Assembly (NCBI GenBank): GCA_964595055.1 | Contig: CAZQOV010000001.1 | Location: 1,360-65,359, forward strand | Length of the DNA stretch: 64,000 nucleotides | DNA from: an uncultured Bacteroidaceae bacterium | GTDB taxonomy: Bacteria; Bacteroidota; Bacteroidia; Bacteroidales; GCA-2748055 | Direction: 5' to 3' | Shown here: positions 37,314 to 64,000 of the stretch, one piece after another | Layout: each line of letters starts with the position of its first letter | How positions within the stretch are numbered: position 1 is the first letter of the stretch | The notes under the pieces: generated by a model | Told to the model about the DNA's origin: nothing | Seen by the model: the letters and a program-made list of their open reading frames with translations, nothing else | Databases searched by the model: none | Made by a program: the position numbers and the translations under genes

Positions 37314-37769
37314 TTAAAACCCTCTTACTTTCAAAACAAGATCATCATCAATGCAATTATCAATCATGTCGAGCAAATCTTCGTAAATACTGAGAAGTTC
37401 TTTGCGGATATTTTCCCAGGTAACTTTCCAGCCCGGATAAAAGGTTTTCAGATCATTAAGAAATACAATCCCTTCAACCTGCATTTTCAGGTAAGCATCA
37501 AATTCATCATAGCTTGCCGTGTTTTTCAAACGGGAATAGTGATCCTGCAGGTGATTACGAAGACTTGTAAGCTTATTATTATCATATTGTGTCAGATCAT
37601 AATAAGAGAAATCAGGATGACTTAAACTAAAAGCGGTTTGAATCAGACTGAAAACTGATCCATGAAGATATTTGGAAGTCTCAGAGAACTTTTTATTGCT
37701 TACCGGAGACATCTCTGAGCTAAACTCAACAATATTCAAATCTTTGTAATCAAAAAGCCTCAGTCGCAT
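37314..37769 (-). CDS. hypothetical protein (151 aa)
   Basis: ORF 12 nt downstream of the GntR-family gene. I see no recognisable motif. Confidence 0.55.
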   Translation of the reverse strand: MRLRLFDYKDLNIVEFSSEMSPVSNKKFSETSKYLHGSVFSLIQTAFSLSHPDFSYYDLTQYDNNKLTSLRNHLQDHYSRLKNTASYDEFDAYLKMQVEGIVFLNDLKTFYPGWKVTWENIRKELLSIYEDLLDMIDNCIDDDLVLKVRGF

Positions 37770-37781
37770 GTTGTCAAGCTG

Positions 37782-38504
37782 TTAAAAAGGTTTCAGGTAT
37801 TTATCATATATTTCCTGTGTTCGGTCAAGATGTTCTTTCATGATTCTGTAGGCTTCCTCATGATTTCCCACTCGAATGGCTTCAAGGATTTTTTTATGGT
37901 AATGCAGGGTATTCTCCTTTTCTCCTTCAATATTGGCATAGATATAATTCCTCATACGGGGAAGAAGAGAATAAATAGGTTCCATGGTAATCTGCATAAT
38001 CGGATTCGCTGTAGATTTGGCAATGATCAGATGAAAACGATTATCAATATCAGCTTCTTTCTGAGTGTTATCCGGGTTGCAGACTTCAAAATCCCTTATG
38101 TTCTGTTCTAGCTCCCGAATGTCATCTTCGCTCCTGTTTTTAGCAGCAAGACGGGCGATTTCCGGTTCAAATAATCTCCGAACTTCGATAAATTGACTAA
38201 GCAGATTTCTGTCAAATTTTAAATCATAGTACAAATTGAGGGTATTAATCGCATCTTCAATGTTCAGTTCATTCACATACATGCCACTACCCTTATGAAT
38301 TCGTATTAACCCCCTGGCGCTTAATCTCCTGAGAGCTTCTCTGAGTGCAGTACGACTTACCCCGAAAGATTCGCACATTTCCCTCTCAGTAGGTAATTTT
38401 GAGCCTACAGCCAGTTTCTTCTCCCGAATTGCATTTTCAATAGTCCTTTCAATTTTCAGGCTAAGGGTTTGCTTGTTGCCAATATTTTGAAATATATCAT
38501 CCAT
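37782..38504 (-). CDS. GntR/FadR-family transcriptional regulator (wHTH + FCD domain)
   Basis: N-terminal LPTEREMCESFGVSRTALREALRRLSARGLI and a helical FCD-like C-terminal domain. Confidence 0.9.
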   Translation of the reverse strand: MDDIFQNIGNKQTLSLKIERTIENAIREKKLAVGSKLPTEREMCESFGVSRTALREALRRLSARGLIRIHKGSGMYVNELNIEDAINTLNLYYDLKFDRNLLSQFIEVRRLFEPEIARLAAKNRSEDDIRELEQNIRDFEVCNPDNTQKEADIDNRFHLIIAKSTANPIMQITMEPIYSLLPRMRNYIYANIEGEKENTLHYHKKILEAIRVGNHEEAYRIMKEHLDRTQEIYDKYLKPF

Positions 38505-38678: not shown

Positions 38679-41594
38679 TCACAGGTTTACCCGGGAAGTT
38701 CCCTGATCATTTTGAATTAGCTCTTCCTTTGTACACTGGTTGATTAAGTAAAATATAGATTGATAACTGATCCCACTGATGTTTGAAAGCCCGATTTCAC
38801 AGGTTCTGCTGTTGGATATTCCGGACCTGCATTCCCCGATTTCTTTTTTCAGATTTCTTAATGCCCATTCATTCAATTCGGGAACTGAAAATCCTTTATC
38901 CCCGGCAAATCCGCAACATCCTACCTGTTCAGGGAAAACGGGTTGTTCGACACAGATTTCGGCAAGTTTTTTAAATTTTTCTTCAAGATTCATTTTAATG
39001 CTGCTACAGGTCACATGAAAAGCCATTTTCCCTTCCTGTTTTTTTATATCAAGTTTATCCAGTAAAAAATCATGAATAAACTCCACCGGTTCATAAAGGT
39101 CCAATTTTTTACTCATCTGCTTTCTCATTCGGTAAATGCAGGGACTTGTATCACAGAGTACGGGATATTTTCCATTGCAACTGCTTATTAACAATTCCCG
39201 CTCCAGTTCCTCGCATTTCTTATTGGCAATTTCGAAGAATCCCTTACTTTCCCAGGGCATGCCACAGCATAAATGGTTCATATTTTCAGGGAAAATTACC
39301 TGAAAACCTGCTCTGTTAAGTACCCTAAGGGTTACATTTACCAGTGAATCCATTGCTTTTTGATTTGATGACGGCCCCATAGCCTGATTGATACAACTGG
39401 GGAAATACACGATCTTACCAGTTCTTTCTGTCTCACAGTTGGTCAAATATTTTTTATCCAGTACAGCAGGACCAGGCATATGGGGATTCCATTGCGGAAT
39501 TCTCTTCAGAGAAAGAGTTCTAACTCCCCGGGTAAAAAAACCAAAGTTTTTGGTTCCTAAGGTCTGATGAAAAAAATGAACCAATCCAAGTCCTTTTCGC
39601 ATTGCACTGAGGGTCAGGCTAAGGTTATCACTCAGACCCTTTGCCACAGCCTGCGGGATTTTTCTGGTCTTATTGGTATTGTTCCTCAGTTTTTTTATCA
39701 GCACGCCGGTATCGATATCCAGGGGACAAGTAACAGAGCATAGTCCATCGCCTGCACAGGTCTTGTCACCCATATATTTAAAAGCACGGCTTATTTCCCG
39801 GATCCGGTTATTGTGTTCATTCCTTCTTATTAGTTTTAATTCTCGCTGAACTACAATTCTTTGCCTGGCAGAAAGCGTTAAGCCTGTACTCAAACAACTG
39901 ATCTCACAGAATCCACATTCTATGCATTTATCTACAGATTCATCCACCTCCGGAAATTGCTTGAAATTCTTGAGGTGGATTTTTTCATCATCATTGATGA
40001 TAACTCCGGGATTAAGGATATTCTCAGGATCAAATATCCTTTTGACTTCCTTCATATATTCATACAACTTTTCTCCCCATTCATATTTAACGAAAGGAGC
40101 CATATTCAGGCCGGTTCCATGCTCTGCCTTTAATGATCCATTGTATTTTTTAACGATAAGTTCAGTGACCTTCTGAATCAATCCTTCATATTGTTTCAGT
40201 TCAACCTGATCCTCAAAGTTTTGAGAAAAAATAAAATGCAGATTACCATCAAGTGCATGACCATAAATGACTGCATCTTCATAACCATTTTCATCAAGCA
40301 GGTTTCTGAGATCTCCGGCAGCCTCTGTTAATCGTTCCGTTCTGACCGCCACATCCTCAATTATAACCACTGTTCCGGGCTTTCTCATCCCTCCTGCCGA
40401 AGGAAAAACTCCTTTTCTTACTTTCCAGACTTCCAAAATTTCTTTGGGATCTCTGGTTAAGGTAAAATTTCTTTCCAGTTTGAAACCTGACAAGACTTTT
40501 TTAGTTTTACCGGTCATAACATCAAGTTCATCTTCACTTTCTGCCTCAAGATCAATCAGCAAGGCTGTAACTTCTGGATGAAAATTCCGAATATATTCGG
40601 GAATTCCTTTTTGTCCTTCTACAGAAGCAAGGGCTTTTCGATCCATAAGTTCTATAGCAGGCACTCCGGCTTCTTTTAAAAGTGGAACAGCTTTACTTGC
40701 TTCAGTCGAATTGCAGAAATAAACAAGCGATGAAGCTCGGAAATTTTTCAGGGGAACCGTTTCAAAAACTGCCTCAGAAACAAACCCGAGGGTACCCTCC
40801 GAACCGACCATTAGGTGAAGAATAATATCGAAGGGATCATCAAAATCCACAAAAGAATTCATTCCATAACCGGTCGTATTTTTAATACTGTATTTTTCTT
40901 TTATTAACTTAACCCCTTCAGGATCAGTTTTGATTTTATTTCTTAATTTTTCAATTCCAGAAATAATACCCGGCTTTTTTTGGGTGAATTGTTTCTTGCT
41001 CTCTTCATTGGAAGTGTCGAGCAAAGTACCGTCGTTAAAAATGATCCTTGCAGAACGAATGGTTGCATAAGAATTTGCATGGATACCACAACTCATGCCA
41101 CTGGCGTTATTAGCTACAATACCTCCTACCATAGCTGAATTGACAGAAGCAGGGTCGGGCCCGAATTTCATTCCGTAAGGTTTCAGTACCTGGTTGAGTC
41201 TCAATCCGGTGATTCCTGGCTGAGTTCTGACAAATTTACCCTTCTCCAGAACCTCTGTCTTGCTCCAATCGTCACCAGAAACCAGCATAAGAACAGAATC
41301 CGTAATGGCCTGACCCGATAATGATGTTCCCGCTGCACGGAATGTCAATGGAATATGCTTTTCCTTTAGTTTTTTAATGATAAAAATGACCTCATCTTCA
41401 TTTCCGGGTTTAACGATCATCTGCGGGATTTTTTTATAACATCCTGCATCAGCACTCCAGGCAATAAGAGAAAGAGAATCGACCCATACCGAAGCCTTAC
41501 CTGTTTTCCCAATGATGCTTTTGTATAAAGTTTTAATTTCCGGTTTCATAACAGGAGATTTTGTAACATTCCTATCGGCTTTTTTTTGACGCAC
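38679..41594 (-). CDS. YdiJ-like FAD-binding and Fe-S-binding D-2-hydroxyacid dehydrogenase (GlcD-like + GlcF-like fusion)
   Basis: FAD/PCMH domain (FRAAGTSLSGQ), two ferredoxin-type motifs (CIECGFCEISC, CAGDGLCSVTCP) and C-terminal CCG motifs (CCGMPW, CCGFAGD). The track start is GTG at 41594; an alternative ATG is at 41549. Confidence 0.86.
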   Translation of the reverse strand: MRQKKADRNVTKSPVMKPEIKTLYKSIIGKTGKASVWVDSLSLIAWSADAGCYKKIPQMIVKPGNEDEVIFIIKKLKEKHIPLTFRAAGTSLSGQAITDSVLMLVSGDDWSKTEVLEKGKFVRTQPGITGLRLNQVLKPYGMKFGPDPASVNSAMVGGIVANNASGMSCGIHANSYATIRSARIIFNDGTLLDTSNEESKKQFTQKKPGIISGIEKLRNKIKTDPEGVKLIKEKYSIKNTTGYGMNSFVDFDDPFDIILHLMVGSEGTLGFVSEAVFETVPLKNFRASSLVYFCNSTEASKAVPLLKEAGVPAIELMDRKALASVEGQKGIPEYIRNFHPEVTALLIDLEAESEDELDVMTGKTKKVLSGFKLERNFTLTRDPKEILEVWKVRKGVFPSAGGMRKPGTVVIIEDVAVRTERLTEAAGDLRNLLDENGYEDAVIYGHALDGNLHFIFSQNFEDQVELKQYEGLIQKVTELIVKKYNGSLKAEHGTGLNMAPFVKYEWGEKLYEYMKEVKRIFDPENILNPGVIINDDEKIHLKNFKQFPEVDESVDKCIECGFCEISCLSTGLTLSARQRIVVQRELKLIRRNEHNNRIREISRAFKYMGDKTCAGDGLCSVTCPLDIDTGVLIKKLRNNTNKTRKIPQAVAKGLSDNLSLTLSAMRKGLGLVHFFHQTLGTKNFGFFTRGVRTLSLKRIPQWNPHMPGPAVLDKKYLTNCETERTGKIVYFPSCINQAMGPSSNQKAMDSLVNVTLRVLNRAGFQVIFPENMNHLCCGMPWESKGFFEIANKKCEELERELLISSCNGKYPVLCDTSPCIYRMRKQMSKKLDLYEPVEFIHDFLLDKLDIKKQEGKMAFHVTCSSIKMNLEEKFKKLAEICVEQPVFPEQVGCCGFAGDKGFSVPELNEWALRNLKKEIGECRSGISNSRTCEIGLSNISGISYQSIFYLINQCTKEELIQNDQGTSRVNL

Positions 41595-41659: not shown

Positions 41660-43981
41660 TTAGCGTACTACTCCTTCCATGGTCTTTTCCAGTTCCCGGG
41701 CATGTTCAAGGAACTCTTTTGCATTCATTTCCTTGAAAAAGAGCAAACCATGGGTAGTACGTATTCTCGGACTCTCATTTTGATAAAAATAATCCTTACC
41801 CAGAATTAACTGTATATCCTTTAACTGATCCACCCAGATGTTCTTGGCAAGTTCTGAGAATTTACCATCCAGCATATAACTAGGGAATGAAGCGTCTACC
41901 TGGCTCAGATAGCAGTTGGTAAAGGCATTGTCCATTACTGCGATAGCATTGAGAGACACCGGAACAATTACATTTGCTTCTGCTGCATGAAAGCGGAACC
42001 AAACATTTCTATATCCCCAGATCCGCAGTTGGGAAAGGTCTTCTTCTTTCTGCCAGAGCCTTACCGCTTCAGCTATGGCCTGTAAAACCTTATAATGTGT
42101 ATCGGGGCCACTCCCTTCCGGATCAAATGCAAGACTGATGACGGTAGGCTTTAGTTCTTTTAATTGTTCCAGGATGGGTGCAACATCTCTCTCCCTTTCG
42201 GGTTGCTCGGTGAATATATCCCCGGTATAGAAACCTAATCTCAAATGATGTACGTTCTTCACCTGGAAACCAAAATGAGCCCATACCAGTTCCTCTTCAA
42301 ACTCTCTTATCATACCTTTAAGTTTCTGGATATGTGGAGGATTTTTCTGTCCGTCATAACTGTTTCTCAAAATGGAAAGAATATCATCAATTTTATTTCT
42401 TAATTCCATAACATTTTTCACCCCATGAATTTCAGTAATGGCTCTCACCACCCTGTGGCTTAATCCGCGAATTCTTTCATAAGGTTCACCGGAAGCCACC
42501 CTGGTCAGATAATGGTAAACATCCTTGTCCCATTTGTATCGATAGCCTTTATGGAAGAAATCAGGGTATTTCGTCATCTGTATTAAATTATTATCCAGAA
42601 AATCCTTGGTGTCCATCAGAACATCGATTACAAAATCATTGGTAACGGCAGTGAATCCGCTGGTCAAAACAGAAAAATGTGCCTGATTGGTTTCTTCTCT
42701 TGAAAGCCTGTGAACATGAGGAAGCATTCCCAACATTACATCATCATGATGAGGTCCTGTATGATAATACATCTGATTGCTTTCTCCTTCACATCCTTTA
42801 TTCAATTTGGATTTGATGCTTTCAATAACCTCTTCCACCATTTTCAGACTTAGATTCGGATTTAACCTGCAGAAAGGATCACTTTTCAGGTCTTCAATGG
42901 TCAGCCGATGAGCATATTTATGCAATCTTTTGCACAGCCCAAGCACAGCACGTTCGCTTTTTTCCTGGGTCCACTCCCCTTCCTCATAATAATTCTTTAC
43001 CAGATCGGTAAGTTTTATGGCCGCTCCGCGCGTAAGATAAAAGCAACTGTTCTTAAGTTTCTGAAGAACAGTCGCCGGGTAAACATTCGTTTGCTCATTC
43101 TCAAGTGCATCCTGAATAACATCTGCTTTGGCCTCTCCTGCCGCAAATATGATGGCAACCGCATCGGGGTTATACGTAATGGTCTCCAGGCCTACGGTAA
43201 TCGCAAGCCTGTTTTTTGAAACCTCAATTCCCCCCAGATCTGTTGCTGCCTGAGCCTGGGTCTCAAAATTTGTCGGGGTAAGCCGGGTGGTGGAAAACCG
43301 GTCTGATCCTCTCACATTAAAAGCTATATGACCGTCAGGACCTATACCTCCGAGGAAGAAACCAATTCCTCCCTTTTCCCTGATTTTTTGCTCATATTCC
43401 GTACACCAATCATCGATCATGAAAATTGATTTTTGCTGAATCTTTTCCATCGCCCCCTTTGCTTCCCGATACCGTAGGGAAAGATCAACTATATTATCAG
43501 GAAACACTTCTGTAAAATGTTTCCCTTCATATAAGGGAATTTCATCGCAATTGATCAGCAGGGAATTTTTCGGATCCAACCCAAAATCCCTTACATAGAA
43601 ATTCATAACATAATGGTAAAAACTATTATGCTGTTCAGAGCTTATGGGATAAAACTCATCAATCTGCACGAAAGAGAGATCTTTTAAAACCGGTTTTTGA
43701 TCAATCTCAAGTCCGTAATGCTTTCTTAAGGCATTAATATCTTTTGAATTCCAGTTATCCAAAATATGTTTTGTCCACTTAATAAAGTATTCAGGAGTTT
43801 TTCCTGTAGGCAAGCTGATCACACCCTTAGGATTTTCATTTACCCATTCCAAAAAACGCAGAGCAGTAAAAAACCCCATCTTGGGAAAATTATCGACTAA
43901 AATATAGGGAATATGTGTACTGTAACTATTTTGTTTCGATAGTTCAAAGAAGCGTTGCTCAACTTTCGATTTGAATTTCAT
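41660..43981 (-). CDS. nagB: long-form glucosamine-6-phosphate deaminase (NagB domain) fused to a C-terminal LmbE/PIG-L-like domain
   Basis: NagB hallmark GGIGPDGHIAFN within aa 30-330. The C-terminal ~370 aa carry YHTGPHHDDVMLG and GPDTHYKV, reminiscent of the PHPDD and HxDH motifs of LmbE-type deacetylases. Confidence 0.82.
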   Translation of the reverse strand: MKFKSKVEQRFFELSKQNSYSTHIPYILVDNFPKMGFFTALRFLEWVNENPKGVISLPTGKTPEYFIKWTKHILDNWNSKDINALRKHYGLEIDQKPVLKDLSFVQIDEFYPISSEQHNSFYHYVMNFYVRDFGLDPKNSLLINCDEIPLYEGKHFTEVFPDNIVDLSLRYREAKGAMEKIQQKSIFMIDDWCTEYEQKIREKGGIGFFLGGIGPDGHIAFNVRGSDRFSTTRLTPTNFETQAQAATDLGGIEVSKNRLAITVGLETITYNPDAVAIIFAAGEAKADVIQDALENEQTNVYPATVLQKLKNSCFYLTRGAAIKLTDLVKNYYEEGEWTQEKSERAVLGLCKRLHKYAHRLTIEDLKSDPFCRLNPNLSLKMVEEVIESIKSKLNKGCEGESNQMYYHTGPHHDDVMLGMLPHVHRLSREETNQAHFSVLTSGFTAVTNDFVIDVLMDTKDFLDNNLIQMTKYPDFFHKGYRYKWDKDVYHYLTRVASGEPYERIRGLSHRVVRAITEIHGVKNVMELRNKIDDILSILRNSYDGQKNPPHIQKLKGMIREFEEELVWAHFGFQVKNVHHLRLGFYTGDIFTEQPERERDVAPILEQLKELKPTVISLAFDPEGSGPDTHYKVLQAIAEAVRLWQKEEDLSQLRIWGYRNVWFRFHAAEANVIVPVSLNAIAVMDNAFTNCYLSQVDASFPSYMLDGKFSELAKNIWVDQLKDIQLILGKDYFYQNESPRIRTTHGLLFFKEMNAKEFLEHARELEKTMEGVVR

Positions 43982-45896: not shown

Positions 45897-47243
45897 TCAG
45901 CTGTAGAGTTTACTGATCTCAGCACCCCGGTAATAATGCCGGAGGATTTCCTGATGAGAATATCCCTTTTCCCCCATTACGGCTGCACCAATCTGGCACA
46001 AGCCAACCCCATGGCCCCAGCCTGCTCCCTTCAGGATAAATTTTTCGGGAACCCCCTCTTGTTCTCCCTCTTTTTCAACGATGAATGCCGAACTTTTGAG
46101 ATGAGAGTCACTTAACCAGCGACGAATAACCAGTTCTTTTCCAATCACCATTTCTTTCTTCTCACCCTGTATTTTTAACTTTATCAACCTACCGGAATGT
46201 CCCCTTTCTAAAGGTACAAGATCCCTTATTCTCCCAAAATCAATTCCCGAACGCCTGTAAATAAGCTCAGCCAACTTCTTCTGATCATATTGGACTTTCC
46301 ATCGATAATAGTTCTTTTCAGAGCGATCATAATCATTTAAAACCTGTTGGAGAATATTTACATCTTTCGTGTCGCAAAAAGCCGGCGGCGGGTCGATAAT
46401 GAACTGTTTTACCTGTTCTTCATTCCTGAGATCTCCGGTATCAACCGAATCATCTTTATAATCTGTCACAGGGACAAGGTAAGGATGCTCAACGGGTTCC
46501 CAGCAGCTTTCAAATCGTTCCGATTTACCTCCGCATGCCTTTGAATAACGGGTATCGCAAATTTCACCATCAAACGTCAGCACCCTGCCGTATGTTTCAT
46601 TTACTGCCTCAATCACGCGGGGATTCGTAATCTTGGTTATTCCCTGGTAACGTTGACAATGATCATCAGCACAAACATGAAACTCCTGATGATCTTCCTT
46701 ATTGTACCAATATATATACTCCTCTTCTGAAGGATTTAAATCCTTTCGAGTATTCGTCTTTTTTTCTCTATCAGTATGGAGCTGGGCCATCAACCAGCTT
46801 CTGGAAATAATCGCATGAGCTTTTAAAAGTTCAGGGGAACTTTCGGCACTCATTTCTGAGGAAATAACACTGATCAAATAGTTTTCGACAGGAATGATAT
46901 TGATAACCTGAATATCCTCTCCCCTTTGAAACAGTTTAAGCGCTCCGCGAAATCTCTGAACTTCACTTTGTTCCCAGTGAAAATCAATACCTATAACCAC
47001 ATTACTCATTTCAAAATAATCGGAAGAAATATTACAGGGTACAAAAATGACCTTCCGGGTATAATTCAATATTCTATCCTCATTTTTGATGAGGATCTCT
47101 CCATTCTTTATTTCAGCTATGCAAGATCCATAACAGTTGGAAGAAGTACCACTTATTTCAAATTTTCCTGCCAGACGAAATTCAATTCTTTTGGCCTTAA
47201 GAATCCCGACCTGAACATTCGGCGAGCTGTTCATATGAAACAA
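45897..47243 (-). CDS. SpoIID/LytB-domain protein lacking any signal peptide or TM segment
   Basis: Motifs VISSEMSAESSPELLKAHAIISRSW, CADDHCQRYQG, YSKACGGKSE and GHGVGLCQIGA. The N-terminus MFHMNSSPNVQVGILKAKRIEF is hydrophilic. Confidence 0.86.
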   Translation of the reverse strand: MFHMNSSPNVQVGILKAKRIEFRLAGKFEISGTSSNCYGSCIAEIKNGEILIKNEDRILNYTRKVIFVPCNISSDYFEMSNVVIGIDFHWEQSEVQRFRGALKLFQRGEDIQVINIIPVENYLISVISSEMSAESSPELLKAHAIISRSWLMAQLHTDREKKTNTRKDLNPSEEEYIYWYNKEDHQEFHVCADDHCQRYQGITKITNPRVIEAVNETYGRVLTFDGEICDTRYSKACGGKSERFESCWEPVEHPYLVPVTDYKDDSVDTGDLRNEEQVKQFIIDPPPAFCDTKDVNILQQVLNDYDRSEKNYYRWKVQYDQKKLAELIYRRSGIDFGRIRDLVPLERGHSGRLIKLKIQGEKKEMVIGKELVIRRWLSDSHLKSSAFIVEKEGEQEGVPEKFILKGAGWGHGVGLCQIGAAVMGEKGYSHQEILRHYYRGAEISKLYS

Positions 47244-52158: not shown

Positions 52159-52563
52159 ACAATAATGTTTATTAAAAGCGTACCCAGACATAATACAAAA
52201 AGAAATGCAAATCGAACCATAAAACTACAAAAATTTGCCTAATTACAAATTGGTATTATATCATTCATATTACTATTTAATGTTAAATAACATAATTGAT
52301 AGCTATTCTATTTCTGTATCACCTTTTATATTTGTATATAATTAATTCCTGTTAAATAACTGATTTTAAGGTTTTGAAACAGGCATATTCTTCCCTGCCA
52401 ATTATTTGTACTAAAAAAATAACCGCAAAAACACAAAGACAGGAATTGGCTATTTTTATAACATATTTTAATTTTTGTATTACAAGTTACAAATTTTGAA
52501 TTTTACCATTCATTCTTCGATTATTGAAACAACATTTTAATAAAAACCAAAAACTCAATTGCT

Positions 52564-57000: not shown

Positions 57001-58121
57001 TCTACTTTAAAGACCGTACACTGGTGGCTTTCCATCAGAAGAATGAAGCAGGACAATGGAATGTCATTGTGAAGGATATCACTTCCGTTCCTCATATCGA
57101 AGTAGGCACTTCCGAAGTACTATCCACATCAAACCAGGAACTTGGCGGCGTTTATGTTCAGACAACTGAGGACAACTTCCATCTGTTCATGCTTTCAGCC
57201 AATGAAGGTCTTGCACACTGGACAGGTACACTAGAACTTCCCATGTTTGAATACGCGGAAACCAACCTTGAAGGTACTGAGATCAATGTAAGATTCAGTA
57301 AGAATATGCCTGATTCCATTGGCAATGCAACCGGATGGACCATCATGGCCGATACAGAAAATATAGGGATCGATACCATTTATGGAACGGGCACAGATCC
57401 AGAAGTACTGACTTTTGCTCTTGAAGCACCTGTTACTGAAGGACAGTCTGTAACTATCGCTTATGACGGAACCGGAAGCGTAACTGCATTTGATGGAATG
57501 CCCCTGAACCCCTTCCTTGCTGAGGCTGTAGTTAATCTTGTTGGTGCTGAAGCCCCCGTTGCTTCCGATGTTAGCCTTACAGGTGAAACCCGTGTTGGAG
57601 AAATACTTACAGGATCATATACATACTCAGATGCAAACGGCGACCTTGAAGAAGGAAGTCAGTATCAGTGGTACTATGCTTCGGATGCTCAAGGAAGCGA
57701 TATGCTCAAACTTCTTGGCGAAAATGACATCACTTACACAATCACAGAAGATGTTGCAGGTAAGTATGTTGCTTTTGAAGTTGTACCTGTCACTACTACA
57801 GGAGGAGAAGACTTCCTCGAGGGAGAACCTGCTATGTCTGACTGGGCATTTATTATCGGAGTAGGAATGGATAATGAATTGGCAAACACAGTAATGATTT
57901 ATCCGAATCCTGTAACCGATGTGCTTACAATCGACAATTGTTCGGACGTACAGTCTGTCACCCTCTTTGACCTGAGTGGTAAAGTGATAATGTCTGTTGA
58001 CAATCGTGGCGGGAATTCCATGAATATCAATATGGCTTCATACCAGAAAGGTATGTACATCCTTAAACTCACCGGAGAGAATGGCAATACCAGGATCGAA
58101 CGTGTAGTGAAATCTAAATAA
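54024..58121 (+). CDS. 1365-aa secreted multidomain protein with T9SS C-terminal sorting domain
   Basis: Signal peptide, two copies of the domain found in the preceding protein, five ~100-aa Ig-like repeats, and a CTD IYPNPVTDVLTI..VTLFDLSGK..GMYILKL (57891..58118). Confidence 0.85.
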   Translation: MKRTCTIMSLFIMVFLLGNIMVKAQPAEVWNIEPDWNTGKDKRGIAYNVLTNHIYVAGTAGSATEAADPALNQIHVLNAADGSLVKTLTLDPLTIASNGYGIRDVAVSDDGGLLATITTTNNFNPQKLYYWENEDADPVLLWEDQSGNDIDFGPGFDVHGDMNEEACIIIPFFEEASVYYFEVTNGNIADPVTLALTNVDAGGNATVQVLGTKISDGFWYNNTTLNQPSLIDGTGNTIGSIPAGIFSGQTHDVEQFGVGDMTYLAVGEDSLVQIIDITDKAADFSDVGSEDSVTEITGKSAIAAGWPPEFGTGHELETMGLPDGSFVVYSLSGGNYIKANATEGAPFATNVMFSGFAMVDSTVEISYQYVDINGDPEGSSEIKWFLSDDEAGTNKTEIVANQNNLTYTVTSEDVGKYLSYSILAIASSGTASDESHVFESGFIGPLAPGDARYPVASDLAITGPIAVDEVLQGSYTYFDENGDLEGKSIIKWYTADDTIGTNMEEVADGTLEYRIKPADDNKYIMFSVTPVASTGVLLEGDEVSVVSDSAVFFPELPPTASDVAITGREEVAGILTGTYTYTDLNDDPEGNTILKWYSADALDGAKTELAADTNRYELVAADEGKYIFFGVTPVTEDGEVGEEAFDTTGVIAAEPDPEAPVATDVMVHGTPEAGAVVYGTYTYTDRTDDPEGNSIIKWYTADDKDGTNMVQIDGANRYTLIVDENMIGKHLVFEITPVATEGELLEGDPVTATTEVAATASTNEGDFDREWIRAKKLDGTPEFIGTGSTERGFAVISDRIYIASRLGGTKLLVVDKANGGLVSEMNTEGMDVGLFKISDVEVSNDGQILACPLQINTSTAPFVIYKWENELSAPTKFIEFTSTEALRLGDKFTVVGDVSSDAVIYAAAAAGNKVVRWVVTGGIVDDGTIITLENTTSIGSTPSVAPFDASPTSDFIVDGRGFQAQIFNHEGLYVGAIEGVGQSNNQSNSPNIFYFKDRTLVAFHQKNEAGQWNVIVKDITSVPHIEVGTSEVLSTSNQELGGVYVQTTEDNFHLFMLSANEGLAHWTGTLELPMFEYAETNLEGTEINVRFSKNMPDSIGNATGWTIMADTENIGIDTIYGTGTDPEVLTFALEAPVTEGQSVTIAYDGTGSVTAFDGMPLNPFLAEAVVNLVGAEAPVASDVSLTGETRVGEILTGSYTYSDANGDLEEGSQYQWYYASDAQGSDMLKLLGENDITYTITEDVAGKYVAFEVVPVTTTGGEDFLEGEPAMSDWAFIIGVGMDNELANTVMIYPNPVTDVLTIDNCSDVQSVTLFDLSGKVIMSVDNRGGNSMNINMASYQKGMYILKLTGENGNTRIERVVKSK
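55056..56288 (+). repeat. four tandem ~100-aa coding repeats (fifth copy at 57552..57848)
   Basis: Recurrent pattern (A/P)PVA(S/T)DV.I.G....G..L.G.YTY.D..GD.EG.S..KWY.ADD..G.N......Y....D.GKY..F.VTPV. The copies are diverged at the DNA level. Confidence 0.8.
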
Positions 58122-58130
58122 TAGGGTTAT

Positions 58131-58165: not shown

Positions 58166-58218
58166 AATTGTACTCACCATTCCACTCACTGAAGAAGGAT
58201 GCTGAGAAGACAAGAATA

Positions 58219-59073
58219 ATGACAAATCATCGAAATGTACCTAAAAACAAAAGGGAAGTGAAAAAACTAATTCCAATAATTATATTCATACTTTTTGCCG
58301 CTTCATCATTTTCACAGGAGATAAAAGTCAGAAAAATCAAAAAACTGCCTGTCGAAGAAAAAGCCTACTTTCCCAATTTCGGAAGAAATCATAAAGAAAT
58401 TTTGTTATCCGGGAAACACCATCAGGGTCTCACTCTGTATAACCGATGCAAAAGAAAAGAAAGGGAAATATCAGATGCAAGAGGTGCAGGAAGGGATTAT
58501 GTGGTAAAACAGGATGGAAATATCATTTTTTCCGAAAACAGCATTAAAGAAGGTAGAAAACTCACCGAATATAAAAGATATAATCCTGAAACCGGACAGA
58601 TCACTGCTGTTGAGTCTCCTCCTGCAGAAGACAAGCATATTAAAATAAAAGGTAAAAATCTGTCTCTTGTGCAGGGTCTGCATGAAGCAAAAGAGCTTAA
58701 CCCGATTGAAAATAAATACTATATATGGGCCTCACTCTCCCCTTCTGAAGACAAAATTCTGTTCACAGCAGCAGGAGACGGAACCTATGTATCAGATCTT
58801 GAGGGAAAAATTCTTCATGATATTGGATACCTTAATGCTCCCCAATGGCTAAATGAAGATTGGGTAATTGGAATGGATGACAAAGATGACGGAGAACAGG
58901 TGATTTCTTCTGATATCGTAGCGGTTCACCTGGAAACAGGAAAAAGAATTAATCTTACGCAAAAATCGGAGGTTATTGCCCAGTACCCTAAAGTATCACC
59001 AGAACAGAACAGGATTGTATATCATAGTCTTGAGGGTGGTGTCTATCTTATGAGGATTAGGATAAAAGAATAG
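58219..59073 (+). CDS. TolB-like / PD40 beta-propeller repeat protein with N-terminal signal-anchor
   Basis: LIPIIIFILFAASSFS, then PD40-like strands (SLSPSEDKILFTAAGDGTYVSDLEG; PKVSPEQNRIVYHSLEGGVYLM). I set the start to the ATG at 58219. Confidence 0.6.
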   Translation: MTNHRNVPKNKREVKKLIPIIIFILFAASSFSQEIKVRKIKKLPVEEKAYFPNFGRNHKEILLSGKHHQGLTLYNRCKRKEREISDARGAGRDYVVKQDGNIIFSENSIKEGRKLTEYKRYNPETGQITAVESPPAEDKHIKIKGKNLSLVQGLHEAKELNPIENKYYIWASLSPSEDKILFTAAGDGTYVSDLEGKILHDIGYLNAPQWLNEDWVIGMDDKDDGEQVISSDIVAVHLETGKRINLTQKSEVIAQYPKVSPEQNRIVYHSLEGGVYLMRIRIKE

Positions 59074-59110: not shown

Positions 59111-61447
59111 TTGAAAAAGATATTTATAATACTACTGACCTTATTTTTTGGAACCCTTTACAGTTCCAGAGCTCAGACTCCTGACTTCACAGGATTAAAA
59201 GTGATGATAAACCCCGGCCACGGAGGACATGACTCAGATGACAGGGGCATGCCAAACGGTTTCTGGGAATCTGAAGGCAACCTGACCAAAGGATTGTGGT
59301 TAAGAGATCTTCTGGAAGCGAGAGGTTGTGAAGTGATCATGTCGAGAGTACTTAACCGGACCGAAGATGACCTGCCCCTATCGCAAATAGCCGAAATAGC
59401 CAACCAAAATGAGGTGGACTTATTTATTTCCATTCATTCCAATGCCGGAAATCAAAGCACCAATTACTGTATGACCATATTTAATGGAAAAAGCGAAACG
59501 CCAACTATTCCTGAGTCAAAAATCTGGGCTAAGATTTTATGGCAACATCTGGTCACAAACAAAGCAACTTTCTGGACAAATACAGATCCTAATTATATCG
59601 GAGATCTAACGCTTAATCCCAGCTGGACCTATGGATACGGAGTTCTTTATCCCCTGGCTGTACCGGGTATCATTTCCGAAGGAAGTATGCACGATTACCG
59701 ACCGGAAATGGATAGGTTATTAAACCTGGAATACCGTAAACAAGAAGCCTGGAACATGTTGTATGCCATGGAAGAGTACTTTCAGCTTCAGGGAAATGAA
59801 CCCTTCGGGAACATCGCAGGGATCATAAGAGATTCTCTGCTCATCAAGGATCATTACAGAATTGAAGGTTCTCCGGACAAATATCATGTGGTAAATAATG
59901 CCGTTGTTGAATTGCTGGAAACCGGAGAAACATATTTTGTAGATACCCTGAATACGGGCTATTATTATTTCGATAGCATTCCACCAGGAGATTATCATCT
60001 GAAATTTTCGGCCTATGAGTACTTCAATGATACGGTCGCAATTACCGTCCTGCCTCATGGCTTTACCTATCATAACCACTGGCTGGAGGCTGATAAAACA
60101 ATGCCTCCGGAGCTTATTCATACTACACCCTCAGAGGGTGGAACGATCGGATGTTACGATCCCATTACCTTTACCTTTGATATGAATATGGATTCTGCCA
60201 GTTTTGCAGAAGCTTTTTCAATTGAACCCCCAATAGATGGGAATTTTACCTGGGGTGAAAACTACCTTAAGGTATCTTTCCTGCCGGTTATCCCATATGA
60301 AACCCTCACCAATTATACCATATTCATTGACTCAACCGCAATGCATCAGTGGGAAGTATCTTTAGATACTACCTATAGCCTAAATTTCGTTACCGGTGAT
60401 CGAAACCGTTATTCACTGGAAAACAGTTTCCCCTCTGATGAACAAGCCAATATCAGTCCCTACCTTCAATTCCGACTGATTTTTGATGCACCTCTTAATA
60501 ATTCTTCCCTGATCAATGCAGTCAAAATAGTAACTTCTGAAGGTGAAACTATCGGAACCCGGGCTGCCATGATAAATACCTTTGAAGGAAAAGGCCATTA
60601 TTATTTCGAGCCTTCGAAAGACCTTGACTATGATAAAGAATATAATCTCCTCCTGGCTGGCTCAATCAAAGATGAAGATAACATCCCTCTTGTCGACACA
60701 CTGGAGATAACCTTTACCACAGGCTCACAACCCGGACCCATGGTCGTACTGGATGAAATGGAAAATCCTTCCGGTTGGAGCATTGATTTTCTCCAGAGTC
60801 CGGGACTCGATCCGGGTTCATTCCTTTACAAATGGTCTAAAACTTACAGGTCCGGTGCTGCCTCCTTGTTGATGAGATATGCATTCACAGAATCAGGGGC
60901 ATCGGCAATGCTTAAACCTGTAACACCAATCGCATTGAATCCCGCAGCAGGCAAAACAGGTATGTGGATTTGGGGAGAAATGAGCTATAATGATATTTTC
61001 CTGGGATTCGACAATGAAACCCATGTACTGCTTACAAATATCGATTTTGCAGGATGGAAATATTGTACTGTCGATATTCCTGAAGGAGCAACAAAACTGA
61101 CTTTTATAAGAATCACGAATACAGAAAACGGAGCTTTCGGAGGTGATCTGTATTTTGACAGGATAAGCCAACCCGACATCACTGGAAGAATAGTCTTCCC
61201 AGAAAAAAACATTAAGGTTTATCCCAATCCGGTAAGTGGAAATGTATTATGGGTTGAGGGATTGAAGAATGCTGAAAGTCAATACTCTATATTCTCACTA
61301 GACGGAAAATTGATTCAACGCAATATCCTTCCCCGTGGAGAGAACAAGATTCTTCTTGAGGACAAGGCTGTAAATCTCTCAATATTTATTTTAAAAGTGA
61401 GCCAGGATAACGTGGATCACAATATAATCATTAACAATCAAAATTAA
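59111..61447 (+). CDS. N-acetylmuramoyl-L-alanine amidase (Amidase_3) fused to CarboxypepD_reg-like, Ig-like and beta-sandwich domains and a T9SS C-terminal sorting domain
   Basis: Amidase_3 motifs INPGHGGHDSD, WESEGNL and FISIHSNAG (about 59189..59815). The CTD is VYPNPVSGNVLWV..YSIFSLDGK..IFILKV (61211..61444). The start codon is TTG. Confidence 0.87.
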   Translation: MKKIFIILLTLFFGTLYSSRAQTPDFTGLKVMINPGHGGHDSDDRGMPNGFWESEGNLTKGLWLRDLLEARGCEVIMSRVLNRTEDDLPLSQIAEIANQNEVDLFISIHSNAGNQSTNYCMTIFNGKSETPTIPESKIWAKILWQHLVTNKATFWTNTDPNYIGDLTLNPSWTYGYGVLYPLAVPGIISEGSMHDYRPEMDRLLNLEYRKQEAWNMLYAMEEYFQLQGNEPFGNIAGIIRDSLLIKDHYRIEGSPDKYHVVNNAVVELLETGETYFVDTLNTGYYYFDSIPPGDYHLKFSAYEYFNDTVAITVLPHGFTYHNHWLEADKTMPPELIHTTPSEGGTIGCYDPITFTFDMNMDSASFAEAFSIEPPIDGNFTWGENYLKVSFLPVIPYETLTNYTIFIDSTAMHQWEVSLDTTYSLNFVTGDRNRYSLENSFPSDEQANISPYLQFRLIFDAPLNNSSLINAVKIVTSEGETIGTRAAMINTFEGKGHYYFEPSKDLDYDKEYNLLLAGSIKDEDNIPLVDTLEITFTTGSQPGPMVVLDEMENPSGWSIDFLQSPGLDPGSFLYKWSKTYRSGAASLLMRYAFTESGASAMLKPVTPIALNPAAGKTGMWIWGEMSYNDIFLGFDNETHVLLTNIDFAGWKYCTVDIPEGATKLTFIRITNTENGAFGGDLYFDRISQPDITGRIVFPEKNIKVYPNPVSGNVLWVEGLKNAESQYSIFSLDGKLIQRNILPRGENKILLEDKAVNLSIFILKVSQDNVDHNIIINNQN

Positions 61448-61478
61448 AGCAAACGCTCAATTTATTAAAAACTGATAT

Positions 61479-64000
61479 ATGAATAAGGTACTATTGATGT
61501 TCGTTTTTCTCTCCACCGCAGCAATGCTTTTTGGTCAGGAGAGAACAGTTACAGGGAAGGTAACCGATGCAGAGGGAGAGCCCCTGATCGGGGCCAGTGT
61601 GGTGGCACAAACGCCCGCAGATGCAAGTCCTATCGGGAGCATAACTGATATCCGGGGAAATTTTAGCATTTCTGTTCCTGAATCAGTTAACACTCTTGTT
61701 ATATCCTATGTTGGTTATGAAACAAAGGAAATTGATATAAGCGGAAAAACCCAGGTGAATATTAGCCTGGAGCAATCAGCCATGCAACTGGATGATGTTG
61801 TGGTGACAGCCCTCGGTATCAAAAAAGAAGAAAAAGCCCTGGGATATGCTTTTTCGGATGTGAAAGGAGATGATTTGGTGACAAACAGGGATGTAAATTT
61901 TATTAACTCAGTGAGTAATAAAATTGCGGGAGTGAACATTTCTCAGACTGCCGGCGGTGCAGGAACTTCATCAAGGATTATCATCAGGGGCGTTAAATCT
62001 TTATCAACAGAAAGTCAGCCTCTTATTGTAATCGACGGCGTACCAATAGACAATTCTTCCGATGGTGCCACATGGCTTGGAGGAGTTGATTATGGGAACA
62101 GCCTGATGGGTGTTTCACCCGATGACATTGAAACCATGTCTGTCCTGAAGGGCCCTAATGCTGCAGCTCTGTATGGTTCAAGGGCAGCAGCGGGAGTTAT
62201 TCTTATCACCACAAAAAAAGGTACCGGAAGAGAAGAGCTGAAAGTAACATTAAATTCCAATTTCATGTTCGACAGAGCTTATATAGTAGCAAAATATCAA
62301 AATGAATATGGAGCAGGTTTTGGAGGTGGTATTCAAAAACAGCTCTTAACGGAAGAGCAACAGGAAAAGTTTGGCAGGGACTCTGCTTACTATTATTTTT
62401 CCACCGGAAGCTGGGGACCTAAGCTGGATGGAACGGTAGAAGTACTTAACTGGAATGATGAATTTGTAAAATTAACTCCCCAGCCAAACAATGTAAGAGA
62501 CTACTTTGAAAAGGGCTATACGCTTACAAATACAGTGGCTATTGAGAGCGGAAATGAGAAAACAAACTGGCGTTTTTCTGCTTCATCATTGAATAACAAA
62601 GGCTTGAAACCAAATAGCAATTACGACAGGAAAACAATCAATTTTAATATAAACACAAACCTGAATAAGTTTGCCTCTTTTAGTTTTAAAGGAAATTATA
62701 TAAGAGAAGATGCCTTTAACAGGGTTGGGCAGGGTGATGCAAGAACCGGTGCAAGGACATTTATATGGATGCCAAGAAGCATTAATATCAATACCCTGAG
62801 AGAAGACTACATGAGTGAAAACGGTTTTGAACAAAACTGGTATTTTGCCAGCGACTGGCATACCAATCCATTCTGGGAGGCTTTTGAAAATTACAATAAT
62901 GATAATAAGGATCAGTTTATCGGCTTTGCGAAATTAGACTTCAAATTCACCCCCTGGCTATCAGGGTATATCCGAAGCAGTATGGACACTTATGGTACCA
63001 AACGATATCTGAGAATAGCCAATAATGCTTTAAGGGCAAATGGTGAGGGTTTGTTTACCGAACGATGGGTGAATTATCGCTCATTGAATCATGACTTCCT
63101 GTTAACGGCTCAAAAAAGTTTCGGAGATGATCTGGATATCAATGTTAATTTTGGAGGAAATTACTTTGATTCCTTTGTTGACTATCAATCATCAACAATA
63201 AACGGCTTAGCGGTTCCGAATTTTTTCTCTCTCAATAATGCCAAATACCCGGCAGAAAATAATATTGGATCAACCCGGAGGCAGAAAAGAATCAATTCAT
63301 TATATGGTTCTGCACAATTTAATTACAAAACCTGGTATTATCTTGAATTAACAGGTAGAAACGATTGGTCATCTACCCTTCCACTTGATAACAATTCCTA
63401 CTTTTATCCATCACTGAACACCAGTTTTGTTTTCAGTAATGCGTTTAATATGGATAAGCGAATACTATCATTTGGGAAAATACGATTCTCCTACGCTTTT
63501 GTAGGGAATGATACAAATCCTTACCAGTTGGAAAATGTATTTATTAATCAGCAGTATGGAGAGGTGCCGGCTGTATATCTGGACAGAAACGGAAAAAATC
63601 CAAATTTGAAGCCTGAGAAAACCGGATCATGGGAAATTGGTACAGATCTTCGCTTTTTTCAAAACCGAATCGGTTTGGACCTGACCTATTATGATGAAGT
63701 TACCTATGACCAGATTGTAGAAGCAGAGATATCAAAAGCCTCAGGGTTCAAAAGCATAATTACCAATGGTGGTGAAATTGCAAACCGCGGCGTGGAAGCT
63801 CAGTTAAATCTTAGCCCGGTAAGGACCTCAAATGTAGATTGGGATATTAACCTTAACTATGCCAAAAACGAAAACGCAGTTTTATCCCTGGCCGGTGGCC
63901 TTTCACAATTTACCATTACCAATGAAAGCCAGATAGATATTGTAGCTATTCCGGGTCGTCCATATGGTGAAATCATAGGAACTACTATTACAAGGTATTA
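61479..64000 (+). CDS. SusC/RagA-family TonB-linked outer-membrane receptor (partial; continues beyond window end)
   Basis: Edge-truncated ORF not in the track. My translation gives MNKVLLMFVFLSTAAMLFGQERTVTGKVTDAEGEPLIGASVV..VISYVGYETKEIDISGKTQVNISLEQSAMQLDDVVVTALGIKKEEKALGYA..IIIRGVKSL..PLIVIDGVPIDN..MSVLKGPNAAALYGSRAAAGVILITTKKG. Confidence 0.9.
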   Translation, partial: MNKVLLMFVFLSTAAMLFGQERTVTGKVTDAEGEPLIGASVVAQTPADASPIGSITDIRGNFSISVPESVNTLVISYVGYETKEIDISGKTQVNISLEQSAMQLDDVVVTALGIKKEEKALGYAFSDVKGDDLVTNRDVNFINSVSNKIAGVNISQTAGGAGTSSRIIIRGVKSLSTESQPLIVIDGVPIDNSSDGATWLGGVDYGNSLMGVSPDDIETMSVLKGPNAAALYGSRAAAGVILITTKKGTGREELKVTLNSNFMFDRAYIVAKYQNEYGAGFGGGIQKQLLTEEQQEKFGRDSAYYYFSTGSWGPKLDGTVEVLNWNDEFVKLTPQPNNVRDYFEKGYTLTNTVAIESGNEKTNWRFSASSLNNKGLKPNSNYDRKTINFNINTNLNKFASFSFKGNYIREDAFNRVGQGDARTGARTFIWMPRSININTLREDYMSENGFEQNWYFASDWHTNPFWEAFENYNNDNKDQFIGFAKLDFKFTPWLSGYIRSSMDTYGTKRYLRIANNALRANGEGLFTERWVNYRSLNHDFLLTAQKSFGDDLDINVNFGGNYFDSFVDYQSSTINGLAVPNFFSLNNAKYPAENNIGSTRRQKRINSLYGSAQFNYKTWYYLELTGRNDWSSTLPLDNNSYFYPSLNTSFVFSNAFNMDKRILSFGKIRFSYAFVGNDTNPYQLENVFINQQYGEVPAVYLDRNGKNPNLKPEKTGSWEIGTDLRFFQNRIGLDLTYYDEVTYDQIVEAEISKASGFKSIITNGGEIANRGVEAQLNLSPVRTSNVDWDINLNYAKNENAVLSLAGGLSQFTITNESQIDIVAIPGRPYGEIIGTTITRY

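Follow-up and report, generated by a model that had tools for sequence, protein, structure and literature searches.

Few bacterial polymers are as abundant in sediments, oceans and guts as peptidoglycan (PG), whose harvest by Bacteroidota has been studied mainly in one oral pathogen. Gene clusters for PG salvage are already known, having been published for Tannerella forsythia and noted for Bacteroides fragilis. In T. forsythia the genes Tanf_08345-08385 ('xanthan lyase', gtf, gtf, lytB, ampG, namZ1, murT, murK and murQ) are co-transcribed and activated by GppX (PMC5388701), with the core of the operon forming a single transcript with namZ1-murTKQ (PMC5388701; bioRxiv 10.1101/2021.12.02.470905). 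The organism depends on its AmpG permease to grow on PG and on culture supernatants; this permease imports both N-acetylglucosaminyl-anhydro-N-acetylmuramic acid (GlcNAc-anhMurNAc) and GlcNAc-MurNAc, and its gene is upregulated in cells grown with PG (PMC7670621). Here we describe a related locus at positions 37314-64000 of a 64,000-nucleotide stretch (hereafter the window) of contig CAZQOV010000001.1, from the assembly GCA_964595055.1 of an uncultured Bacteroidaceae bacterium. From the predicted proteins and their genomic contexts, we consider it likely that this locus of a marine-type Bacteroidales serves the foraging and salvage of PG fragments by means of two modules, which probably share a GntR-type regulator. 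What is new relative to the known clusters is the coupling of their core to an outer module based on SusC/D and the type IX secretion system (T9SS), with an Amidase_3 enzyme and a Cwp19-like GHL10 enzyme; further additions are a NagB/LmbE-like fusion and the GntR protein, and the SpoIID-like member of the core is here recognised as a predicted cytoplasmic protein. A literature search for a described SusC/D-type polysaccharide utilization locus (PUL) directed at PG returned nothing relevant.

Profile searches of the open reading frames (ORFs) of the window against Pfam and NCBIfam, with domain identity judged by the family cut-offs, delineated two arms that diverge from a 372-bp spacer (52192-52563). 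This spacer is AT-rich, as an initial annotation made from the letters alone had proposed, with 23.1% GC against 39.3% for the whole window. Every domain named in that annotation was recovered in its place, including the two T9SS cargo proteins, the TolB-like propeller, the SusC-type importer, the secreted GHL10 hydrolase and the GntR/FadR regulator. The genes it listed thus stand, and to them we add three of the minus arm that it had left out, namely a GT2 glycosyltransferase, a DUF4922 protein and a tandem GNAT acetyltransferase. The minus arm from GHL10 through NagB/LmbE is operon-like, with intergenic gaps of -4 to 36 nt; scans of this arm for Sigma-70 promoters and intrinsic terminators performed no better than on shuffled sequences, as expected for Bacteroidota, and provided no operon boundaries.

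The heart of the minus arm is formed by the soluble GT2 protein (49123-50589; PF00535, 73 bits over residues 246-379), the DUF4922 protein (48162-49115; PF16269, 199 bits), the SpoIID/LytB-domain protein (45897-47243; TIGR02669, 178.6 bits against a cut-off of 83.3) and an AmpG-family permease of the major facilitator superfamily (MFS; 44000-45865), all on the minus strand. This is the same one-strand order of GT2, DUF4922 (there called 'gtf'), SpoIID/LytB and AmpG that is seen in Tanf_08345-08385 and in the similar B. fragilis cluster. The four window genes are the counterpart of Tanf_08350-08365, with GT2 corresponding to Tanf_08350, DUF4922 to Tanf_08355 and the SpoIID-like protein to TfLytB (Tanf_08360). 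The two systems differ in their surroundings: over its 64 kb the window lacks the ~1000-aa Golvesin_C protein, NamZ, MurT, MurK and MurQ, and it adds GHL10, the tandem GNAT, NagB/LmbE and a divergent SusC-containing arm, whereas regulation falls to a GntR protein in place of the hybrid two-component regulator GppX.

To place this core in a wider context, we gathered 80 genome loci anchored on DUF4922 (these and other related loci are designated by L numbers below), queried them with the proteins of the window and grouped the full set of their ORFs by clustering. GT2 lies directly upstream of DUF4922 in 68 of the 80 loci, these two being the most conserved genes of the minus arm. The other neighbours of DUF4922 are SpoIID, on either side (53 loci), AmpG (34), NamZ and the Golvesin_C protein (22 each), a MurK-like kinase of the BadF type (18), a MurQ-like SIS protein (14), a dehydrogenase with flavin adenine dinucleotide (FAD) and Fe-S domains (12), a NagZ-like GH3 enzyme and an HGSNAT-type acetyltransferase (9 each) and NagB/LmbE (7). 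At least one PG-salvage marker (NamZ, MurK, MurQ, NagZ or the FAD/Fe-S dehydrogenase) is present in 30 of the 56 loci of at least 15 kb, and in 30 of the 43 loci of that size without GT4. The order GT2, DUF4922, SpoIID/LytB, AmpG on one strand recurs in at least 20 Bacteroidia loci, and the window shows it with the GNAT gene inserted. A bridge between the window and the T. forsythia operon is provided by L079 (Bacteroides hominis), a single-strand array of NamZ, an SSF transporter, Golvesin_C, a metallophosphatase/propeller protein, GT2, DUF4922 and SpoIID that continues with AmpG, NamZ, the FAD/Fe-S dehydrogenase, HGSNAT, MurK and MurQ. In most Bacteroidia loci, the ~1000-aa exported Golvesin_C protein (22/80 loci overall; e.g., L079, L069, L001 and L005) directly precedes GT2, a position that equates it with the T. 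forsythia 'xanthan lyase' Tanf_08345; in the window this position is taken by GHL10.

The inserted tandem GNAT (47263-48165, minus strand) matches Acetyltransf_1 in two stretches and was found at the same position in only two of the 80 loci, L005 and L010; it is a lineage-specific insert in the core operon. Some related clusters display other modifying enzymes, either a fusion of GH9 with a polysaccharide deacetylase (CE4) or an HGSNAT-type transmembrane acetyltransferase (L049 12272-14743, L110 7501-9978, L079 17826-18989). Together with the window GNAT, these suggest the handling of N-deacetylated or O-acetylated glycan.

The assignment of the permease draws on similarity and operon position with respect to an AmpG whose function has been tested. 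It is 71% and 55% identical to the 432-aa AmpG of Bacteroides in the two parts that flank an insertion, and its homologues are syntenic with SpoIID, DUF4922 and GT2 in the 34 loci noted above; the AmpG of Bacteroides thetaiotaomicron is in turn 79% identical to the tested T. forsythia protein (PMC5388701). The curated profiles score it below their cut-offs, with TIGR00901, whose match is split in two by the insertion, at 172 bits against 350 and the equivalog models at 94-95 bits against 656-756. The insertion itself (~190 aa, residues 173-361), which sets the window protein apart from that of T. forsythia-type operons, is hydrophilic, lies between the predicted transmembrane segments 5 and 6 and has no Pfam match; from this placement it is probably a periplasmic loop. 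The AmpGs of Bacteroides and Paludibacter (424-453 aa) lack it, and about 22 of the 34 syntenic homologues (555-643 aa) have it.

The SpoIID-like protein aligns to the structures 4rwr and 5i1t, such that the Glu of its SSEMS stretch matches the Glu of the (S/G)EM motif, and it keeps the GHGVG motif. We take this Glu to be the catalytic residue of SpoIID, reportedly E101 in the Clostridioides difficile enzyme (Nocadello et al. 2016). A domain above the cut-off, the catalytic Glu and the GHGVG motif are thus shared with SpoIID of Bacillus and Clostridioides (which goes with SpoIIP) and with the 'amidase enhancer' LytB; in contrast to these, the window protein lacks a membrane anchor or signal peptide, features an extra N-terminal domain of ~100 aa and has GT2 and DUF4922 as its genetic partners in place of SpoIIP/SpoIIM. 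A Kyte-Doolittle scan, run without a dedicated predictor, detected no N-terminal hydrophobic segment in the window protein or in any of its syntenic homologues (0/53), and the same test was positive for 20 of 27 NamZ ORFs and for the window GHL10. Because an export signal is missing from 53 homologues, the SpoIID-like enzyme probably acts in the cytoplasm, after import by AmpG, and not on sacculi. The initial annotation had this enzyme cutting denuded glycan strands ahead of AmpG, a role that its predicted location contradicts. A cytoplasmic location is also predicted for GT2, DUF4922, GNAT, NagB/LmbE and the dehydrogenase.

Of the two partners of the SpoIID-like protein, GT2 has a 240-aa N-terminal extension and no predicted transmembrane segment. 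A sequence search of the PDB with DUF4922 gave no match, and we used its predicted structure instead: the AlphaFold model (confidence score, pLDDT, of 84.8) has as its top PDB match in Foldseek the yeast Ap4A phosphorylase Apa2 (4i5t; E 1.9e-9, TM ~0.55). Further, the motif H148-x-H150-x-Q152 is invariant in 24 sequences, and DUF4922 homologues also carry GDPGP1_C. By this modeled fold, DUF4922 belongs to the GalT/Apa2 branch of the HIT superfamily and resembles a nucleotidyl phosphorylase or transferase. A literature search on DUF4922 in bacteria returned nothing relevant.

Biosynthetic pathways typically contain glycosyltransferases and nucleotidyl enzymes of the GalT/Apa2 type, and GT2, DUF4922, the SpoIID-like protein and GNAT might accordingly constitute a biosynthetic module for a cytoplasmic glycoconjugate or sugar nucleotide that is merely co-regulated with muropeptide import or fed by it. 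Indeed, the T. forsythia operon was first described as related to glycosylation (PMC5388701; 10.1101/2021.12.02.470905). In Ignavibacteria (L014-L047 and others; e.g., L020 5982-10954), we found a stand-alone four-gene unit of SpoIID-like, GT4, GT2 and DUF4922, flanked by unrelated genes on the opposite strand (an arginase-family enzyme, TonB and an AI-2E transporter); within 10 kb of it there is neither AmpG nor another PG-salvage gene. Since the unit stands alone there, GT2, DUF4922 and the SpoIID-like protein appear to form an autonomous module, whose link to muropeptide import would be a feature of Bacteroidia. Within Bacteroidia, however, this trio almost always lies between exported PG hydrolases and AmpG, NamZ, MurK or MurQ on one strand, it is co-transcribed with the salvage genes in T. 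forsythia (PMC5388701), and its SpoIID-like member retains the catalytic Glu of a PG-cleaving enzyme. These contexts lead us to regard a biosynthetic role as unlikely, albeit deserving of serious attention.

If the trio acts on the imported sugars, it could offer a kinase-independent route for GlcNAc-anhMurNAc, a speculative proposal to which we attach little confidence. In such a scheme, lytic-transglycosylase and glycosyltransferase chemistry run in reverse may convert the 1,6-anhydro sugar or the disaccharide to a nucleotide sugar or a sugar-1-phosphate, without AnmK or NagZ. Were this true, the trio would explain how T. forsythia, in whose genome no AnmK is predicted, nevertheless grows on GlcNAc-anhMurNAc (PMC7670621), and it would open a new way for cell-wall sugars to enter salvage, linked in this lineage to what could be called a 'peptidoglycan utilization locus' based on SusC/D and the T9SS. 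For both gtf genes of T. forsythia, and for its 'xanthan lyase', the function is stated as unknown (bioRxiv 10.1101/2021.12.02.470905). The trio is co-transcribed with ampG in that organism and is widely conserved (5974 database homologues for DUF4922); none of its members has an assigned function, and where AnmK is absent, its genes are concrete candidates for the anhMurNAc-processing step that is missing.

The plus arm contributes the exported functions. Its first two genes code for T9a (52564-53988, 474 aa) and T9b (54024-58121, 1365 aa), both with hydrophobic N-termini and with T9SS sorting domains above the cut-off (Por_Secre_tail 46.3 bits and TIGR04183 44.3 bits in T9a; 51.3 and 50.0 bits in T9b). 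The AlphaFold model of T9a (pLDDT 86.2) has as its top PDB match an uncharacterised Bacteroides DUF4623 propeller (4ftd, E 2.7e-13), and on this model T9a is a T9SS-secreted β-propeller with a sorting domain; its family is narrow, with 73 proteins mostly from metagenome-assembled genomes (MAGs) of Salinivirgaceae and other Bacteroidales. Residues 8-344 and 790-972 of T9b resemble T9a and bracket five AIR9-type immunoglobulin (Ig) repeats (IG_AIR9, matched five times, 141 bits), and the second of these two T9a-like copies overlaps a weak DUF5018 match; orthologues of T9b occupy the same position in L082 and L083. That T9a and T9b bind the substrate is our guess. The next gene encodes the 301-aa TolB-like protein p301 (58168-59073), which has a signal peptide. 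The protein itself has no Pfam match and found none in a sequence search of the PDB, and its identity comes from its homologues, which carry the PD40/TolB families PF07676, PF26549 and PF26550 and bear the source name 'Tol biopolymer transport system component'.

The TolB-like gene is followed by an amidase (59111-61447) that combines Amidase_3 (PF01520, 67.9 bits against 27) with CarboxypepD_reg, Big_5 and a borderline T9SS tail. We gathered 80 metagenome loci anchored on the TolB-like protein and counted adjacency in the 39 of them that span at least 10 kb: TolB-like is followed by Amidase_3 in 38 of the 39, which makes TolB-like its obligate partner, and 16 of the loci have GHL10 within 10 kb. 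The His of PGHGG, the Glu of wESEg, the His of SIHSNA and the catalytic Glu (IISEG) of the window amidase align with those of the PDB amidases 5j72 and 3ne8; with its Zn ligands (His/Glu/His) and catalytic Glu intact, the enzyme does not appear to be catalytically dead, an outcome that would have undone the initial proposal. The T9SS-secreted Amidase_3 of that proposal is upheld as to family and catalytic residues, with its secretion being borderline: the tail scores 22.1 bits against 27 in Pfam and 22.2 against 23 in NCBIfam, just below both. The distant homologue in L118 has a clear T9SS tail (43.9 bits), and the precomputed domains of close homologues list none. Just 5' of TolB-like/Amidase_3, most of the metagenomic modules (31 loci among L086-L164; e.g., L138 7525-9978) code for a T9SS-tailed NAGPA (phosphodiester glycosidase) protein, which hints at wall polymers joined by phosphodiesters, for instance teichoic acid linkages, as a target. 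We also considered Amidase_3-GHL10 fusion proteins and found that none exist, the one similarity cluster joining the two families stemming from shared accessory domains.

The arm ends in a SusC/RagA importer (61479-64000), which is cut by the window end at residue 840. It passes both curated SusC cut-offs (TIGR04056, 539 against 368; TIGR04057, 57.4 bits against 46.2) and has the Pfam CarboxypepD_reg, Plug and barrel domains. Its orthologues in L082 and L083 are 1092-1094 aa long, and a SusD-like protein of 511-512 aa directly follows in L082 and L083/L084; from these loci, a SusD would be expected just past the window end, where the initial annotation had also placed it, followed by a second GHL10.

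The GHL10 enzyme heading the minus arm (50626-52191; PF02638, 244.9 bits against 27.9) has a signal peptide and no T9SS tail. Over residues 35-388 it matches the GHL10 domain of C. difficile Cwp19 (5oq2) with E 9.1e-89, Cwp19 being a PG lytic transglycosylase (PMC6016235). Compared with Cwp19, it is devoid of cell-wall-binding repeats, belongs to a Gram-negative host and is predicted to be periplasmic. Because it is a close relative of Cwp19, it fits the role of periplasmic cutter; it is probably a periplasmic PG lytic transglycosylase and is likelier than the SpoIID-like protein to be the maker of anhydro-disaccharides.

Several of these proteins would suit the recycling of the cell's own wall turnover products just as well, in the manner of the Escherichia coli AmpG pathway, with the amidase, GHL10 and the TolB-like protein serving as periplasmic housekeeping autolysins. 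Recycling pathways classically include AmpG, Amidase_3 and lytic transglycosylases, and propellers of the TolB type belong to the periplasmic envelope proteins. In the window, GHL10 and the TolB-like protein have no more than signal peptides, and the T9SS tail of the amidase is sub-threshold. The locus further shares with the E. coli system (AmpG, NagZ, AmpD, AnmK, MurQ, NagA and NagB) the import of GlcNAc-anhMurNAc by an AmpG-family MFS permease, the removal of stem peptides by an amidase, and the catabolism of GlcNAc-6-P, with D-lactate as an end point. In contrast to E. coli, the window lacks NagZ, AnmK, MurQ and NagA, its amidase is exported rather than cytoplasmic, its deacetylase is of the LmbE type and fused to a divergent NagB, and the substrate is external, to judge by its SusC importer and T9SS cargo. 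Indeed, SusC/RagA, accompanied by SusD in orthologous loci, imports from outside, and the plus arm is headed by two clear T9SS cargo proteins. The distant amidase homologues with an unambiguous T9SS tail, the common NAGPA-T9SS partners and the second, long GHL10 that follows SusD in L083 and L086 point the same way, and the T. forsythia counterpart serves scavenging (PMC7670621). We hence hold self-recycling to be quite improbable as the main role of the locus.

The two arms are joined in several related loci. L082, a metagenome contig with proteins 54-62% identical to those of the window, shows the full two-arm layout, with DUF4922, GT2 and GHL10 on one strand and T9a, T9b, TolB-like, Amidase_3, SusC, SusD and the start of a second GHL10 on the other. 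In L083/L084 and L086, GHL10 diverges from T9a-T9b-TolB-like-Amidase_3-SusC-SusD-GHL10(long). In L005, a Salinivirgaceae MAG that is the closest relative overall, T9a is divergent from GHL10-GntR, which is followed by murQ/murK, Golvesin_C, GT2, DUF4922, GNAT, SpoIID, AmpG and NagB/LmbE. Finally, TolB-like and Amidase_3 head a same-strand array of MurK-Golvesin_C-GT2-DUF4922-SpoIID-AmpG-NamZ-dehydrogenase in L069 (Muribaculaceae), and NagB/LmbE adjoins TolB-like/Amidase_3 in L053. The synteny of the arms, proposed earlier as a check, thus holds as an identical layout (L082), as GHL10 with the plus-arm part (L083, L086) and as the GHL10-T9a junction (L005). Several independent arrangements connect the outer unit of GHL10, TolB-like and Amidase_3, be it with SusC/D or not, to the AmpG core, and we consider this unit a recurring module. 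We rejected the plus arm as a generic T9SS/PUL neighbour, given that TolB-like/Amidase_3 is embedded in AmpG operon arrays elsewhere.

Arms without a common substrate, the minus arm for muropeptide salvage and the plus arm a PUL for another polymer whose Amidase_3 acts on some other amide-linked substrate, would agree with the absence of a PG-related domain from T9a and T9b (the nearest fold being the DUF4623 propeller), with a SusC/D substrate that is unreadable from sequence and with the L083 case, where the plus arm with GHL10 and the GT2-DUF4922 core sit apart on one 1.5-Mb contig, but are very improbable in view of the PG-active families to which both Amidase_3 and the Cwp19-like GHL10 belong, of the junctions in L069, L053 and L082, and of a conserved palindrome common to the divergent promoters.

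With Bacteroidota PULs in general, the locus shares SusC/RagA, the SusD of its orthologous loci, exported degradative enzymes, putative surface binders and a local regulator. It differs from them in that its enzymes are Amidase_3 and GHL10, its surface proteins bear T9SS tails instead of lipoprotein anchors, and its regulator is of the GntR type and not SusR, a hybrid two-component system or an extracytoplasmic function (ECF) sigma factor. To our knowledge, neither Amidase_3 nor GHL10 is a CAZy glycoside-hydrolase family; because its enzymes would lie outside those families, standard PUL annotation would probably miss this route and assign it no substrate.

Downstream of AmpG, the minus arm encodes a candidate catabolic tail. 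The 773-aa NagB/LmbE-like fusion (41660-43981) matches NagB structures in the PDB at E 9e-17, and its NagB domain keeps the Asp of IDEF and the DGHIAFN motif, with Val (NVRGS) as the equivalent of E148. We take the catalytic residues of E. coli NagB to be D72, D141, H143 and E148. The LmbE motifs PHHDD (410-414) and PDTH (626-629) are present with a large insertion between them. The fusion postulated in the initial annotation is therefore apparent in its motifs, while it misses the Pfam and NCBIfam cut-offs (PRK02122, 210 bits against 384; TIGR00502, 87.8 against 236.9; PF02585, 20.6 against 28.2). Homologues occur in seven related loci, on the same strand in all, and by its motifs and context the protein is a probable GlcNAc-6-P deacetylase/GlcN-6-P deaminase tail of the pathway. 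As a replacement for MurQ it was rejected, for L005, L049, L074 and L077 carry both.

The adjacent 971-aa dehydrogenase (38679-41594, minus strand) combines FAD_binding_4, FAD-oxidase_C, a 4Fe-4S dicluster and CCG domains. Its best NCBIfam match is YdiJ, at 209.8 bits against 1350 and hence far below the cut-off, with the architecture present. In Bacteroides, Muribaculaceae and Barnesiella, it lies between NamZ and HGSNAT/MurK/MurQ. MurQ releases D-lactate from MurNAc-6-P, and the proposed D-lactate step fits this arrangement; the protein is a probable D-lactate dehydrogenase of the Dld-II/YdiJ architecture, its substrate being suggested by the synteny with NamZ/MurK/MurQ. As the initial annotation had noted of the NagZ, AnmK/MurK and MurQ equivalents, a profile scan of the remaining window, covering ORFs from 215 aa upwards, found no GH3, BadF-type kinase, AnmK or SIS/MurQ family. 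Neither namZ nor murT-murK-murQ was found in the 64 kb; the closest relative, L005, has murK and murQ, and L079 has the linked set. If the chain is to be complete, the genome must encode murQ, murK or anmK, and nagZ outside the window.

Domain identities, catalytic motifs, predicted locations and recurrent gene linkage were observed directly, and from them we infer the order of the steps and the substrates of SusC/D and GHL10. Outside the cell, the β-propeller/Ig T9SS proteins and the amidase would meet foreign cell-wall material and strip its stem peptides. The glycan fragments would enter through SusC/SusD at the outer membrane and be cut to GlcNAc-anhMurNAc by the Cwp19-like GHL10 in the periplasm, and AmpG would take the disaccharides across the inner membrane into the cytoplasm. 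There, GT2, DUF4922, the SpoIID-like protein and the lineage-specific GNAT would process them in steps that we assign tentatively, NagB/LmbE would turn GlcNAc-6-P into fructose-6-P, and the FAD/Fe-S dehydrogenase would oxidise MurNAc-derived D-lactate to pyruvate. The locus and its relatives thus suggest a complete route, from secreted or surface proteins and amidase, through SusC/D import and a periplasmic cutter, to AmpG and a catabolic tail. The initial annotation had likewise read the genes as one PG pathway: the identity of the core, the synteny and the salvage neighbours bear this out, and what has to be revised is the role of SpoIID and the omission of GT2, DUF4922 and GNAT.

A number of points weigh against PG foraging and salvage as the role of the locus. 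First, NagB/LmbE, the dehydrogenase and AmpG all fall under their curated family cut-offs, the NagB domain being also without the E148 equivalent. Second, the absence of murQ, murK/anmK and nagZ from the scanned ORFs leaves the catabolic chain incomplete in the window. Third, on the outer side, T9a and T9b have no assigned activity, the sub-threshold tail means that the amidase may be periplasmic rather than secreted, and SusD is not visible within a window that ends inside SusC. Fourth, a starch-active enzyme of the GHL10 family has reportedly been described. Fifth, in light of the stand-alone Ignavibacteria unit, the role of GT2, DUF4922 and the SpoIID-like protein may not need to be muropeptide catabolism.

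The presumed regulator of the locus (37782-38504, minus strand) has an N-terminal GntR helix-turn-helix (PF00392, 72.8 bits against 27) and a C-terminal FCD domain (PF07729, 89.7 against 24.3), with NanR and LldR as its nearest NCBIfam models. Homologues with 62-80% identity lie beside GHL10 or murQ/murK in L005, L049, L074 and L077. In the divergent spacer, the palindrome TTGTATTACAA at 52475-52485 is the sole exact TGTANTACA in the 64 kb; one exact match against 0.49 expected is not significant, and its weight comes only from conservation at the orthologous position. The form TTGTAnTACAA is kept in the GHL10/T9a spacer of L005 (758-768), L082, L083 (4175-4185) and L086 (4212-4222), making five loci with the window; L082 has two copies (2268-2278 and 4285-4295), the extra one upstream of GT2. 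A second box at ~52250-52295, comprising TGTAATACATCATTCATATTAC and ATGTT-N5-AACAT, is conserved in L082, L083 and L086. The palindrome has the T.GT...AC.A form typical of FadR-subfamily operators, and the boxes are of the form of LldR/PdhR-type GntR operators. We consider the palindromes candidate GntR operators and the GntR/FCD protein a candidate repressor, with its control of both arms being what we infer from their position, and with D-lactate and MurNAc as candidate ligands.

A parallel is offered by the Dld-II and D-LldR pair of Pseudomonas and Shewanella. We presume that Dld-II has the FAD and Fe-S architecture; a GntR/FCD gene stands beside the dehydrogenase in the window too. In Pseudomonas, D-LldR is a D-lactate-responsive GntR protein whose operator AATTGGTAtTACCAATT controls dld-II, and the window palindrome TTGTAtTACAA is of the same form (PMC6731338). 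The window differs in that it has no lactate permease, its candidate operator precedes the PG-degrading arms and not the dehydrogenase, and the dehydrogenase scores far below YdiJ, the nearest curated model.

The last gene of the minus arm, hyp151 (37314-37769), codes for a small predicted cytoplasmic protein of 151 aa with zero Pfam or NCBIfam matches. Because a 151-aa homologue lies directly beside GHL10 in L083 (1892-2347; 29% identity over the full length, E 2e-21), hyp151 is probably a genuine, if uncharacterised, member of the system. The minus arm stops at mnmA, and the remainder of the window is housekeeping. The mnmA ORF (35929-37251) was listed with a GTG start ~45 codons 5' of the likely Met, and this extension is probably untranslated. 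Elsewhere in the window and unrelated to the locus, two aconitase-family paralogues on opposite strands (4338-6116 and 7988-9844) flank asnA, with an MFS transporter gene just 3'.

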